Positions 15,046 through 48,291 of a DNA stretch of 64,000 bases are shown here, in pieces. The notes under the pieces were generated by a model. It was not told the DNA's origin. It ran no database searches and was given only the letters and a program-made list of their open reading frames with translations. Source of the stretch: a virus; the IMG/VR virus record IMGVR_UViG_3300049914_000251, positions 32,001 through 96,000 of that record. The stretch is one strand, 5' to 3'. Positions within the stretch are counted from its first letter, which is position 1, and each line of letters begins with the position of its first letter. A program made the position numbers and the translations under genes.

Positions 15046-15121
15046 TGGTAGCGGGGGAGGGAGTCAAACCCTCTTCTGTGGTTTATGAGACCACCGCCTT
15101 AATCGCTTTGGCTTCCCCGCA
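15046..15121 (-). tRNA. tRNA-Met(CAT), initiator-like acceptor stem
   Basis: Loop CTCATAA; U1xU72 mismatch, G2-C71, C3-G70; CCA. Confidence 0.85.
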
Positions 15122-15215: not shown

Positions 15216-15242
15216 AGCAGCCCCGCTGATATCGGAGCTGCT
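15216..15242 (-). terminator. intrinsic terminator-like hairpin between clpP and the 4-tRNA cluster
   Basis: AGCAGCTCCG-N7-CGGGGCTGCT followed by TTGTAT. Confidence 0.55.
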
Positions 15243-19055: not shown

Positions 19056-19403
19056 CTATCTCTCCGGTGGCGTCTCGTTATTTCTCCCGTGGCTCCTTAC
19101 AAACAATCCTCTTACTGCCTCAACCTGGGCAGGGTCATTAATCTTCTTTAATAAAGTCGCAGACACGTTCCAACGCGTACCATCATCGACCGCAACCTTA
19201 ATACATGTCTTACCTAACCGGTTCACCGTTCCCCTGATAAGCGTACCTCTGCCCTTGAACTCCACCCGGTCTCCTACGCTGAACGCAAACTTGGCTAACT
19301 GTTGCTTATTTCTCCAAGCCTCTTTCAGAATAGAGCCAGCCTCATGCAGCTCATCAGAAGTCGCACCTACCAACATCTCGAACAATTTAGCCTTATCTAA
19401 CAT
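19056..19403 (-). CDS. SH3-like phage protein
   Basis: FSVGDRVEF...GTV...WNVSATLL; start set downstream of the promoter. Confidence 0.6.
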   Translation of the reverse strand: MLDKAKLFEMLVGATSDELHEAGSILKEAWRNKQQLAKFAFSVGDRVEFKGRGTLIRGTVNRLGKTCIKVAVDDGTRWNVSATLLKKINDPAQVEAVRGLFVRSHGRNNETPPER

Positions 19404-19434: not shown

Positions 19435-19463
19435 ATACTACCATAAAGCTTATACGATGTCAA
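19435..19463 (-). promoter_or_regulatory. sigma70-type promoter
   Basis: TTGACA-N17-TAGTAT with TGn, just after the tRNA array. Confidence 0.78.
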
Positions 19464-19470
19464 ATGAAGC

Positions 19471-19547
19471 TGGTCGGAGTGGAAGGAATCAAACCTCCGA
19501 CAATATGGCCCCGAACCATACGCTCTATCAAACTGAGCTACACTCCG
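19471..19547 (-). tRNA. tRNA-Pro(CGG)
   Basis: Loop TTCGGGG; C1-G72, A73; CCA. Confidence 0.9.
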
Positions 19548-19551
19548 ATTG

Positions 19552-19623
19552 TGGGTCTGGTAGGATTTGAACCTACGACAGTCTGCTTAAGAGGCAGCTG
19601 CTCTACCCCTGAGCTACAAACCC
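19552..19623 (-). tRNA. tRNA-Lys(CTT)
   Basis: Loop CTCTTAA; no encoded CCA. Confidence 0.9.
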
Positions 19624-19625
19624 AA

Positions 19626-19699
19626 TGGTGGAGGTAACAGGAATCGAACCCGCGTCTACTCGGTGCAAACGAGTCGTTCTCCCTCTGAACTATACCCCC
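19626..19699 (-). tRNA. tRNA-Ala(TGC)
   Basis: Loop TTTGCAC; G3:U70; CCA. Confidence 0.92.
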
Positions 19700-19701
19700 G
19701 G

Positions 19702-19773
19702 TTGGCACGGAAGGAGTTAAACCTTCTTCCCCGATTTATAAGATCGGAGCACTGTTCGTTGTGCTACATGCCA
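19702..19773 (-). tRNA. tRNA-Ile(TAT)
   Basis: CCGAT-CTTATAA-ATCGG arm; A73; only CC encoded before tRNA-Ala. Confidence 0.8.
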
Positions 19774-19775
19774 TT

Positions 19776-19849
19776 AGATGGTGAGTGGAATCGGACCACC
19801 TTATAATAGTTTTGCAGACTACCGCCTATACCATTCGAGCCACACCATC
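19776..19849 (-). tRNA. tRNA-Cys(GCA)
   Basis: Loop CTGCAAA; U73; no CCA. Confidence 0.88.
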
Positions 19850-19852
19850 ATG

Positions 19853-19924
19853 AGTGAGAGGAGGGATTCAAACCCTCGATATCCTACATGGCAAGCAGGT
19901 GTTCTATCGCTGAACTACTCCCAC
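19853..19924 (-). tRNA. tRNA-Gly(GCC)
   Basis: Loop TTGCCAT; U73; no CCA. Confidence 0.88.
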
Positions 19925-19927
19925 ATG

Positions 19928-19999
19928 TTGGCCTGGTAAGACTCGAACTTACGACCCCTGCTTTATCAGAGCAGTGCTTTACCCCTAAGCTACAAGCCA
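19928..19999 (-). tRNA. tRNA-Ile(GAT)
   Basis: Loop CTGATAA; no CCA. Confidence 0.9.
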
Positions 20000-20008
20000 G
20001 TCTATAAG

Positions 20009-20079
20009 TAGGCACTATACGACTTGAACGTATACCCTACAGGTTCAAAGCCTGTTGCTCTGCATTGAGCTAAGTGCCT
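20009..20079 (-). tRNA. tRNA-Gln(TTG)
   Basis: Loop CTTTGAA; no CCA. Confidence 0.82.
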
Positions 20080-20083
20080 TATG

Positions 20084-20156
20084 TAGTCCCTGTAGGACTC
20101 GAACCTACAACCTCTTCCTTGTAAGGGAAAAGCTCTGTCCATTGAGCTAAGGGACT
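20084..20156 (-). tRNA. tRNA-Val(TAC)
   Basis: Loop CTTACAA; no CCA. Confidence 0.9.
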
Positions 20157-20158
20157 AT

Positions 20159-20233
20159 TGGCAGCAGAGGCAGGGGTCGAACCTGCAACCATCTCGTTAA
20201 CAGCGAGCCGCTCAACCATTGAGCTACTCTGCT
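20159..20233 (-). tRNA. tRNA-Asn(GTT)
   Basis: Loop CTGTTAA; G73; CCA. Confidence 0.9.
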
Positions 20234-20235
20234 AT

Positions 20236-20310
20236 TGGTGCTCCCAACAGGATTTGAACCTGTGTCCTTAGATTGAGAATCTAACGTCCTAACCACTAGA
20301 CTATGAGAGC
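20236..20310 (-). tRNA. tRNA-Glu(CTC)
   Basis: Loop TTCTCAA; CCA. Confidence 0.92.
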
Positions 20311-20311
20311 A

Positions 20312-20387
20312 TGGCGCACCCAGAGGGAGTCGGACCCTCCACCACTCGGTTGACAGCCGAGCATTCTAACCGCTGAACTATGAGTGC
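20312..20387 (-). tRNA. tRNA-Asp(GTC)
   Basis: Loop CTGTCAA; G73; CCA. Confidence 0.92.
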
Positions 20388-20388
20388 A

Positions 20389-20476
20389 TGGCGGGAAGTA
20401 CAGGATTTGAACCTGTGAGACTGTTACATCTAAAGATTTAGCAAACCTTCTCAATAAGCCACTCTGACAACCAATA
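20389..20476 (-). tRNA. tRNA-Ser(GCT) with mismatched 5' acceptor end (pseudogene or editing substrate)
   Basis: Intact D, anticodon (TTGCTAA), variable and T arms plus G73-CCA, but positions 1-4 (TATT) cannot pair with 69-72 (TCCC). Confidence 0.7.
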
Positions 20477-20495
20477 TATTCAGTTGTTAATGTTC
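20477..20495 (-). promoter_or_regulatory. rrn boxA-like element
   Basis: GAACATTAACAACTGAATA resembles the boxA/processing motif of bacterial rRNA spacers (GAACCTTGAAAACTGNATA-type). Confidence 0.5.
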
Positions 20496-20569
20496 TGGTA
20501 CAGGCAGGAGGAATCAGACCTCCGTTAATCGGTTAAAAGCCGACTGCTTTATCACTAAGCTATACCTGC
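20496..20569 (-). tRNA. tRNA-Lys(TTT)
   Basis: Loop CTTTTAA; atypical T-loop TCTGATT; CCA. Confidence 0.87.
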
Positions 20570-20572
20570 ACA

Positions 20573-20648
20573 TGGCTGGCTCTATACGACTTGAACGTAT
20601 AACCCCTAGCTTCAGAGGCTAGTGCTCTGCCAATTGAGCTAAGAGCCA
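20573..20648 (-). tRNA. tRNA-Gln(CTG)
   Basis: Loop CTCTGAA; U1-A72, G73; CCA. Confidence 0.88.
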
Positions 20649-20650
20649 AT

Positions 20651-20723
20651 AGCCCTCGACAGGACTTGAACCTGCGACCGTATGTTTAGGAAACATCCTC
20701 TCTTCCAACTGAGATACGAGGGC
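20651..20723 (-). tRNA. tRNA-Arg(CCT)
   Basis: Loop TTCCTAA; no CCA. Confidence 0.9.
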
Positions 20724-20724
20724 A

Positions 20725-20801
20725 TGGCATCCTCGGTGGGAGTCGGACCCACGACCCACGGTTTAGAAAACCGCTGCTCTAATCCTCTGAGCTACGAGGA
20801 C
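20725..20801 (-). tRNA. tRNA-Arg(TCT)
   Basis: Loop TTTCTAA; CCA. Confidence 0.92.
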
Positions 20802-20808
20802 AGAAATA

Positions 20809-20884
20809 TGGTGCTGGAGAGTGGAATTGGACCACCTACCCTCCCGTCTTCGGCGGGATGCTACTACCGATGAGCTACCCCAGC
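20809..20884 (-). tRNA. tRNA-Phe(GAA)
   Basis: Loop CCGAAGA (C33); CCA. Confidence 0.85.
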
Positions 20885-20887
20885 ACA

Positions 20888-20964
20888 TGGAAGGGATAGA
20901 GGGACTTGAACCCTCAACTTTCAGTTTCGAAGACTGCTGCTCTTATCCATTGAGCTATATCCCC
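20888..20964 (-). tRNA. tRNA-Arg(TCG)
   Basis: Loop CTTCGAA; CCA. Confidence 0.9.
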
Positions 20965-20972
20965 AAAATAAG

Positions 20973-21044
20973 TGCCACCAGCGAGATTCGAACTCACCTT
21001 TTCACGTTGAAAGCGTGATATACTAACCACTATGTGATGATGGC
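20973..21044 (-). tRNA. tRNA-Glu(TTC)
   Basis: Loop CTTTCAA; no CCA. Confidence 0.87.
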
Positions 21045-21047
21045 ATG

Positions 21048-21123
21048 TGGAGCTGGAGAGAGGACTTGAACCCCCAACCCGATCATTACAGGTGATCCGC
21101 TCTTCCACTTGAGCTACTCCAGC
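21048..21123 (-). tRNA. tRNA-Thr(TGT)
   Basis: Loop CCTGTAA (C33); CCA. Confidence 0.9.
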
Positions 21124-21278
21124 CAACAGAAAAGAGATAATAAAGGGCAGGCACGTCAATATCGACCGCTTAACGTCGTGCCTGCCCCTCCGCGAAATAC
21201 TTGGTACGCACTACACTTACTTCTACCATCTCGCACATCCCTCCGTTGCGTACCAAACGGAGCCGTGCCCCCAACTCA
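21124..21278 (-). ncRNA. structured leader RNA / attenuator of the tRNA array
   Basis: Several complementary blocks and a terminator hairpin between the promoter and the first tRNA (see findings). Confidence 0.6.
21139..21187 (-). terminator. intrinsic terminator in the tRNA-array leader
   Basis: GGGCAGGCACG...CGTGCCTGCCC followed by TTTATT. Confidence 0.7.
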
Positions 21279-21284
21279 GTCTTT

Positions 21285-21313
21285 AATATACCACATTACT
21301 TATTTCTTGTCAA
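21285..21313 (-). promoter_or_regulatory. sigma70-type promoter of the tRNA array
   Basis: TTGACA-N17-TATATT with TGTGn extended -10. Confidence 0.82.
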
Positions 21314-21584
21314 GACCCGGAAAAACTTCCCCATTTTCTGCACACTTCTTATCCTCCCACCTGGCAGCCACTTTACGATAGAACTCCAACTTAGCCATCT
21401 CGAGCGCCTTTATAGCATCTCCTATCATATCATAACCCCGCACTCCATAAACAGCTATGAGAAGTTTCGTAATAACATAGTTTACCTTACCATCGATATC
21501 AGGAGAATCAGGAACTAACCTGTAAACCAACTTATCAATAACCTCGTCTAAATAACCCCGCTTCACGTCTTCAATATAAGGCAT
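21300..21584 (-). CDS. conserved phage protein (DUF6899-like)
   Basis: MPYI...GKVNYVITKL...ALEMAKLEFYRKVAARWEDKKCAENGEV. Confidence 0.7.
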   Translation of the reverse strand: MPYIEDVKRGYLDEVIDKLVYRLVPDSPDIDGKVNYVITKLLIAVYGVRGYDMIGDAIKALEMAKLEFYRKVAARWEDKKCAENGEVFPGLDKK

Positions 21585-21592
21585 CTCCCCTC

Positions 21593-22288
21593 CTAGCGTG
21601 CCCGGACTTCGACCGGATCCCAATGCTCTGCCCATAAAACTAAAACTTCCACAGCTTCATCTTCGCTGTACACCACTTTTGTAGCATAATGATCCCGCCA
21701 TCCGGAAGGAACACGCTCGCCGTTCGGACCCTGTTTACAAAGAACGCACGTAGGCTTATCCTCCATGAACGTCATGTACCAGAACTCTCCCTGAGTTCCC
21801 CACGATAAATCAGATCCTGTAAGGGTTAGAACCGCGTCGCTCATCCGCATATCATGTAAGTCCCTAGACGTAATTTCCCGCATAGAAAACTTTTCGCTTA
21901 CCTCGGGAATGTCACAGCGTATCTCTTTAAGGTTTCGCAAAAAGCTCTTTCCTCGCATCGGATCCCGCACGGCTATTCCACGCTTTTCAAGCATCTTAGT
22001 AACACGAAGCCGTTGAGCTGACGCTTCCTCAAAAGACAATCCATCTATCCTTCCGGAAAGGTACACAGTAAATGGTCTGCCTGCCTCTATTCTCTTGGCA
22101 TACCGTCTGATTAAATTTACAGCGGACTCTACCGTGTCAGCTACTGCATTCGAATAGACCTGACTAATTAGAGCATATACCGCAGGATCCTCTCCCCCAA
22201 CCTTTCCGGTTAAATCCTTTGGGATCTCTTTCTTAACCAGCTCCTGAATCTTAAATATCAACTCCGTCAATCTTGTTGGATCGGCCAT
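21593..22288 (-). CDS. nucleoside 2-deoxyribosyltransferase-like protein
   Basis: VYLSGRI...DPMRGK...RDLHDMRMSDAVL...SWGTQGE. Confidence 0.75.
   Translation of the reverse strand: MADPTRLTELIFKIQELVKKEIPKDLTGKVGGEDPAVYALISQVYSNAVADTVESAVNLIRRYAKRIEAGRPFTVYLSGRIDGLSFEEASAQRLRVTKMLEKRGIAVRDPMRGKSFLRNLKEIRCDIPEVSEKFSMREITSRDLHDMRMSDAVLTLTGSDLSWGTQGEFWYMTFMEDKPTCVLCKQGPNGERVPSGWRDHYATKVVYSEDEAVEVLVLWAEHWDPVEVRAR

Positions 22289-46335: not shown

Positions 46336-48291
<1,956 letters not shown>

Follow-up and report, generated by a model that had tools for sequence, protein, structure and literature searches.

A promoter, short leader and strong terminator placed before a 21-tRNA array in a large freshwater-sediment phage: a possible lineage-specific transcription gate

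An array of 21 tRNA genes in a large phage lies behind a strong promoter, a short G+C-rich leader and the strongest intrinsic terminator of its genome. Because this terminator stands between the strong promoter and an array for which no convincing promoter of its own was recognized, read-through of the terminator gates the array. The explanation that we prefer, to which a probability of roughly 0.45 is given, is that promoter, short RNA and terminator form a cassette particular to this phage lineage that works as a transcription gate, either regulated or simply dosing the tRNAs. The degrees of confidence expressed here for the different readings overlap and need not sum to one. The window, by which the whole analysed stretch of 64,000 nucleotides is meant, comprises bases 32001-96000 of a linear IMG/VR phage record of 113,818 bp that is about 85% complete, and its DNA originated from freshwater sediment. 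A previous reading of the bare letters, referred to below as the original prediction, had described a consensus promoter, two hairpins (A and B), a strong terminator with a U tract just before tRNA-Thr, and an array of 21 tRNAs led by this tRNA-Thr, all on the minus strand; each of these elements was found in its place (Table 1).

The minus strand is the coding strand around the leader, whose surroundings correspond to the replication and repair region of an apparently lytic phage. The products of this region include a DnaB-like helicase, an SNF2 helicase and a clamp-loader-like protein, together with an RNA ligase, a CCA-adding enzyme, a DNA ligase and Ku. The gene neighbouring the leader on its upstream side encodes a DUF6899 protein, has its stop codon at 21302-21300 and is overlapped by the -35 box of the leader promoter. 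In another part of the window, 18-nt periodic repeats were noticed in more than 50 copies (46750-48260), all inside an ORF of 651 aa (46336-48291), which implies that they encode a six-residue protein repeat, probably of a fibre or tail protein. Regarding the distribution of this phage, two DNA runs from freshwater sediment, and no RNA run, were listed as containing it, and one of the two is its probable source. The second, produced in another study, contained at low depth near-identical pieces of the tRNA array (window 20331-20769) and an 87%-identical piece at 21798-21934, and did not cover the leader. These pieces indicate that the phage, or a close relative of it, is present elsewhere.

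The promoter that precedes the leader is of the sigma-70 type, agrees with the consensus at 11 of 12 positions and carries a TG before its TATATT, being therefore TG-extended. Four similar promoters accompany it in the window, so that five TG-extended promoters with a perfect -35 box were counted there, every one on the minus strand (21313, 19463, 14872, 13179 and 6954), and a sixth promoter with a perfect -35 box, this one without the TG, was located at genome position 23030, also on the coding strand. The spacers of this perfect TTGACA family measure 17-18 nt. Those of the promoters at 21313 and 6954 begin alike, with AAGAAAYAAG, and three others of the family have TnnTATAAG in common. The other four members of the family found in the window are each placed directly upstream of the start of a protein-coding ORF. 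As for the stretch between the terminator and tRNA-Thr, its sole promoter-like match was weak, with 9 of 12 positions and no TG, and the tRNA array thus has no convincing promoter of its own.

The terminator consists of a GC-rich stem, in which 9 of the 11 pairs are G-C, directly followed by a U tract (UUUAUUAU, 21144-21137), the arrangement by which Rho-independent terminators are recognized. The stem reaches 14 bp when the A-U and G-U pairs at its base are counted, and its long loop is branched, which is atypical. The predicted fold has an energy of -27.8 kcal/mol (z -4.96), and under a strict scan this hairpin ranked first among the 30 terminator-like hairpins of the minus strand of the 113.8-kb record. 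The distance from the terminator to tRNA-Thr is 20 nt; this short stretch (21124-21144, minus strand) contains CUCUUUU, which weakly resembles a boxA core and is too short to be judged.

Table 1. Features of the leader locus and of the second tRNA cluster, in window coordinates; folds and their energies are predictions
Feature	Position	Strand	Details
DUF6899 protein gene	21584-21300	-	immediate upstream neighbour of the leader
Sigma-70-type promoter	21285-21313	-	TTGACA 21313-21308; 17-nt spacer; TATATT 21290-21285
5' copy of part of the terminator 5' arm	21264-21272	-	GGGGGCACG; can pair with CGUGCCU of the terminator 3' arm
Hairpin A	21233-21268	-	inner stem 21262-21256 with 21247-21241; -14.2 kcal/mol (leader positions 13-52)
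Hairpin B	21192-21234	-	7-8 bp stem with two G-U pairs; 29-nt loop; -9.2 kcal/mol
10-nt complement	21201-21210	-	UGCGUACCAA, perfect match to UUGGUACGCA at 21256-21247; 36-nt gap
Candidate 19-codon leader ORF	21170-21229	-	AUG 21229-21227; UAA 21172-21170
Intrinsic terminator	21137-21187	-	11-bp stem 21187-21177 with 21155-21145; 21-nt loop
21-tRNA array	19471-21123	-	tRNA-Thr(UGU) first, starting at 21123
Second-strongest terminator-like hairpin	15216-15242	-	10 bp, 7 G-C pairs, followed by UUGUAUGU

No terminator was found after the array, and the next promoter starts at 19463, 8 nt past tRNA-Pro, so that transcripts of the array probably continue into the following genes. A terminator in front of tRNA genes was also observed at a second site, since the second-strongest terminator-like hairpin directly precedes tRNA-His, the head of a second cluster composed of His, a CAU tRNA, Ser and Gly. 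Neither a promoter nor a 5' sensor domain was found before this second cluster, and the interval from the stop of the upstream ORF (at about 15270) to the hairpin contained no promoter. It is thus a solid observation that each tRNA cluster directly follows one of the genome's two strongest terminators, which indicates that a terminator before the tRNAs is a design feature, independent of the supposed sensor of the leader. The comparison with Rfam also detected a tRNA of 52 bits at 15049-15121 (minus strand), with a CAU anticodon loop of Met or Ile2 type, which was not in the ARAGORN list; the phage hence has 27 tRNA genes, not 26.

The region between promoter and terminator can adopt more than one predicted fold. 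The inner stem of hairpin A is formed by 7 bp (CUCCGUU with AACGGAG) and its outer stem by GCAC with GUGC, with a loop of 8 nt (UGGUACGC, 21255-21248) and, in the 3' arm, a GGAGG that resembles a Shine-Dalgarno (SD) site. In hairpin B, the stem is formed by GCGAGAU(G) with (U)AUUUCGC, and the 5' arm holds the AUG of the candidate leader ORF. The large loop of hairpin B contains the exact 8-nt complement of loop A (GCGUACCA, 21209-21202), which extends to the 10 nt given in Table 1 with a duplex energy of -12.3 to -14.9 kcal/mol. This 10-nt complement could pair loop to loop, in a kissing interaction, or as the stem of an alternative long hairpin. The original prediction had proposed the kissing pair, and it was right about the exact complement and about its extension to 10 nt, but nested folding favours one ordinary long hairpin built on the complement, which is further lengthened by the pairing of CUCCGU with GCGGAG. 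In addition, two bases belong both to the outer stem of hairpin A and to the base of hairpin B, so that the two structures cannot be complete at the same time. The long hairpin was estimated at about -26 kcal/mol, and hairpins A and B plus the kissing pair at about -27 kcal/mol (our own sum of the parts), which makes the two folds of the 5' domain near-isoenergetic.

Shuffled sequences were used as the reference for these structures. Of 5000 dinucleotide shuffles made from the 97-nt 5' domain, a single one gave a perfect inverted repeat of 10 nt, and across the genome 13 perfect inverted repeats of 10 nt were observed, against 3.6 in shuffles, two of the 13 being located inside the leader. The 5' domain as a whole displayed no unusual stability (z -1.39), and hairpin loops with a nearby 8-nt complement occur throughout the genome at the shuffled (chance) rate, with no excess. 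These results altogether indicate that the 10-nt complement, which is non-random, and the terminator were probably selected, and that the stems of hairpins A and B were not demonstrably so. The leader also differs from the genome in its G+C content (58.6% versus 45.8%).

A further fold had been suggested by the original prediction, in which the 5' end of the leader would pair with the 3' arm of the terminator and act as an antiterminator. A copy of part of the terminator 5' arm (GGGGGCACG) is indeed found near the 5' end and is able to pair with the 3' arm through 7 bp (6 Watson-Crick pairs and one G-U); however, the best fold that includes this antiterminator reaches -45.5 kcal/mol, against -54.0 kcal/mol for the terminated fold, being thus 8.5 kcal/mol weaker, and is preferred only with the terminator 5' arm blocked. 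The comparison with Rfam suggested by the same prediction matched no family other than tRNAs, either at gathering thresholds or at E<=10, and the T-box family (RF00230) was absent even under permissive filters; the best non-tRNA matches in the interval 21050-21350 had E values of 0.3 to 8, far below threshold. Readings of the leader as a tRNA-like RNA, a tmRNA-like RNA or a ribozyme (hammerhead, pistol or HDV-like) were also considered and abandoned, with no ARAGORN or Rfam signal for any of them.

The search for relatives pointed to an element of narrow distribution. Leader-like DNA was not found in phage records by blastn, and exact and gapped pattern scans of IMG/VR for the leader, plus the 5' half of tRNA-Thr, returned nothing. 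A covariance model made from the single sequence recovered the leader itself only, among 73 sources (the window and 72 fetched related loci). When relatives of the neighbouring proteins were sought, IMG/VR contained none for the 231-aa protein or the helicase, and genome contigs contained none either. Lactobacillus phage 3-521 has one tRNA-like stretch in common with this phage and nothing else. The closest relative with DNA examined was a JGI contig (L004), with 79% amino-acid identity in the neighbouring gene, which remains syntenic with the phage until the DUF6899 gene ends and departs from it exactly at the promoter, having no array, no leader and no tRNAs. Among 68 DUF6899 loci of IMG/VR, 7 have tRNA genes located 5-230 nt downstream on the same strand (L007, L023, L034, L048, L055, L064 and L065, from otherwise distant phages), and no promoter, leader or terminator was found between the DUF6899 gene and the tRNAs in these 7 loci. 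Several of these arrays begin with Arg(UCG), Arg(CCU), Arg(UCU) and Lys(UUU); the Arg(UCG) tRNAs that were compared are not close to that of this phage, and the tRNAs are not clearly orthologous.

The existence of leaderless DUF6899-tRNA loci, together with the break of synteny exactly at the promoter, indicates that the cassette is a lineage-specific insertion of the moron type, and its organization agrees with this class, as it has its own promoter and terminator and separates genes that adjoin each other in related phages. In a distant high-GC phage (L002, 5700-5960, minus strand), an arrangement was read by eye in which two consensus promoters lie upstream of a cluster that is led by tRNA-Thr; the first is followed by about 55 nt and then by a terminator-like hairpin with its U tract, and after the second comes a hairpin-rich leader of about 110 nt.

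In the preferred reading, the strong early promoter, of the type used by the host sigma-70, would fire into the G+C-rich leader of about 140 nt, and most transcripts would probably end at the strongest intrinsic terminator of the genome, before the tRNAs. Those that read through would be cut by RNase P at tRNA-Thr, and in both cases the leader would be freed as a separate, folded RNA measuring 135-160 nt; the output of tRNAs would then equal the strength of the promoter times the read-through of the terminator. We infer that read-through may be regulated, and the two near-isoenergetic folds offer a possible basis for this, as hairpins A and B with the loop-loop pairing would bury GGAGG and AUG (fold 1), and the long hairpin on the 10-nt complement would present both in its apical loop (fold 2). 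Two triggers may be proposed. A ribosome on the 19-codon ORF could melt the terminator 5' arm by a coupling of the pyrBI type, or a phage antitermination factor or RNA might let the polymerase pass, as in lambdoid PR'-tR' units. Proteins of the Q type (PF06530, PF03589), Antiterm proteins and NusG-like proteins were not detected in the 113.8-kb record, itself about 85% complete, and unrelated antiterminators may still exist in the phage. The terminator could also be simply constitutive and leaky.

Other explanations account for parts of the same evidence. The cassette might be a stand-alone gene of the moron type for a small RNA or a mini-ORF, whose product would act in trans and whose terminator would leave the tRNAs to passive leakage; this is possible, if on the whole doubtful. 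It agrees with the moron-like placement of promoter and terminator between genes which related phages carry side by side, with the end of the synteny with L004 at the promoter, and with a folded RNA of about 100 nt whose 3' hairpin and U tail fit bacterial small RNAs, and the StxS RNA of Stx phages demonstrates that short RNAs of this kind can act in trans (PMC7547250). However, no target or seed sequence was identified for it, no homologue appeared in any collection searched, and, with purely incidental leakage, 21 tRNA genes devoid of a promoter would be starved by the strongest terminator of the genome standing before them. The 5' domain could even have no function, the terminator serving to end the upstream operon and the promoter, hairpins and complement being fortuitous. 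The ordinary stability of the domain, the chance rate of loop complements in the genome and the lack of conservation in everything that was searched are in line with this reading, which we nevertheless hold to be quite unlikely: the perfect 10-nt complement was reproduced in so few shuffles, a non-coding stretch so rich in G+C is out of keeping with its genome, and it would be a waste to aim a promoter of the phage's strongest class straight at the strongest terminator if neither the short RNA nor the gate had any importance.

Translation of the leader is central to a further alternative, a ribosome-coupled attenuator, in which a ribosome that keeps pace on the leader ORF would cause read-through and a lagging one would allow termination, the 10-nt complement deciding whether the SD and AUG are masked or exposed. 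The GGAGG (21244-21240) is the usual SD of this phage, two AUGs are available in frame (the one at 21238 would lengthen the ORF by 3 codons), the final codons span the terminator 5' arm, the UAA is inside the terminator loop, and blocking of the 5' arm would allow the 3' arm to pair with GGGGGCACG. Against it, an ORF of such length reaches the terminator by chance about 1 time in 8 (our estimate), the 10-nt spacing between GGAGG and AUG is uncommon, being found in 6 of 133 phage genes, and both signals are buried in hairpins A and B. Moreover, 13 of 18 codons are readable by tRNAs of the array, against a background of 63% (P=0.30, not significant), no codon runs occur in the ORF, and no upstream segment is complementary to the terminator 5' arm, so that there is no trp-type 2:3 antiterminator; the early codons would also give a response of the wrong sign for sensing a shortage of tRNAs. 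A likeness of the start region (GTGCGAGATG) to that of the real gene at 19403 was at chance level and was discarded. The leader ORF with its ribosome-binding site is, as read from the letters, a candidate indistinguishable from chance, and an attenuator built on it is unlikely. A combined form, in which a bistable leader would report the state of translation, by means of the leader ORF or by directly touching the 3' ends of tRNAs, and open the terminator accordingly, is more doubtful still and would be a long shot; if it were true, the phage would make its 21 tRNAs on demand, its tRNA genes being controlled at the RNA level in a way for which no published precedent was found. The model of the original prediction, a riboswitch-like leader that senses tRNA 3' ends when these are free or uncharged, whose ACCA would bind the UGGU-initiated loop A in competition with loop B and shift the fold to the 5' antiterminator, is highly improbable. 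UGGU does start loop A and ACCA does occur in loop B, the phage tRNA-Lys(UUU) has a 3' end (GUACCA) with which 6 nt of loop A could pair, and the 5' copy of the terminator arm exists. However, 8-10 intramolecular pairs would have to give way to 4-6 intermolecular ones, and UGGU (21255-21252) is part of a hairpin loop, not of anything like a T-box antiterminator, about 60 nt upstream of the terminator 5' arm, so that loop A is outside the terminator, has no bases in common with it and does not compete with it. The prediction had itself remarked that no T-box Stem I was visible, and none appeared in the folds and RF00230 gave no match at E<=10; a specifier and T-box sequence are also lacking, the antiterminator fold is the weaker one, and the terminator of the second tRNA cluster has no domain of this sort. 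The sensing inference was thus left unsupported, and we do not believe that tRNA or any small ligand is bound by the element.

The lineage-specific gate is the reading preferred here, and its consequences depend on the behaviour of the terminator. The control of tRNA arrays in large phages has been little studied, and, if the gate is regulated, tRNA supply would be timed or dosed at the RNA level. If the terminator is constitutive, the cassette would be a mere promoter-terminator pair with a fixed low output. The short leader RNA may also have a role of its own, as StxS has in Stx phages.

Among known systems, attenuation of the pyrBI type (pyrL) in enterobacteria employs a short leader ORF that runs into the terminator, where a coupled ribosome prevents formation of the hairpin and a separate antiterminator helix is unneeded. 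The leader resembles it in the short candidate ORF running into the terminator hairpin, and differs in that the controlled genes are tRNAs instead of pyrimidine genes and in that no U-rich polymerase pause region was identified. The put RNAs of phage HK022 are cis-acting antiterminator RNAs composed of two adjacent stem-loops downstream of an early phage promoter, and the leader likewise has two adjacent stem-loops after an early promoter and before a terminator, with co-directional genes downstream; to our knowledge, put elements have no loop-loop complement, and a put-like effect of the leader on the polymerase would be pure conjecture. With the T-box (RF00230), the leader has in common the presence of a terminator and a UGGN that could in principle pair with the NCCA end of a tRNA, but it has no Stem I, no specifier and no T-box consensus, and its UGGU is not in an antiterminator bulge.

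The nearest published layout appears to be the lambdoid PR'-tR' unit, from which lambda 6S RNA and StxS derive. In Stx phages, PR' is constitutively active and its transcripts are terminated at tR', generating the short RNA StxS, with tRNA genes located downstream, which in the Stx2 phage seem to be transcribed from a separate promoter situated beyond tR' (PMC7547250). Both the lambdoid unit and the leader would thus combine a strong, always-active promoter with an intrinsic terminator within 150-260 nt, a short RNA as the default product (read here from the sequence only) and downstream genes behind the terminator, including tRNA genes in the Stx phages. In contrast, no Q-family protein was detected in the phage record, there is no sequence similarity between the two, the leader is found in the replication/early region and not at the late operon, and, unlike the Stx2 phage, it has nothing stronger than the weak 9/12 promoter match after its terminator. 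A cellular parallel is GraL, in the leader of E. coli greA, for which the published account (PMC2836576) describes a strong promoter whose transcripts are for the most part stopped at a terminator in the leader, yielding small RNAs; the phage leader would be similar in that most transcripts are stopped at the leader terminator and the remainder read through. The same account gives the GraL RNAs as 40-60 nt long, places them at a chromosomal gene and suggests that the efficiency of the terminator is apparently unaffected by growth phase. As regards the tRNAs themselves, the trn operon of Anabaena is a long tRNA array gated by the DNA-binding repressor TrcR (PMC10272220, PMC8421152), so that a long array is gated and not constitutive there as in this phage, although the control in Anabaena is exerted by TrcR and not by an RNA leader or terminator. 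The cassette belongs to known kinds of element, namely leader terminators, short promoter-proximal RNAs and phage morons; its leader has a new sequence and an unusual location, in front of 21 tRNA genes.
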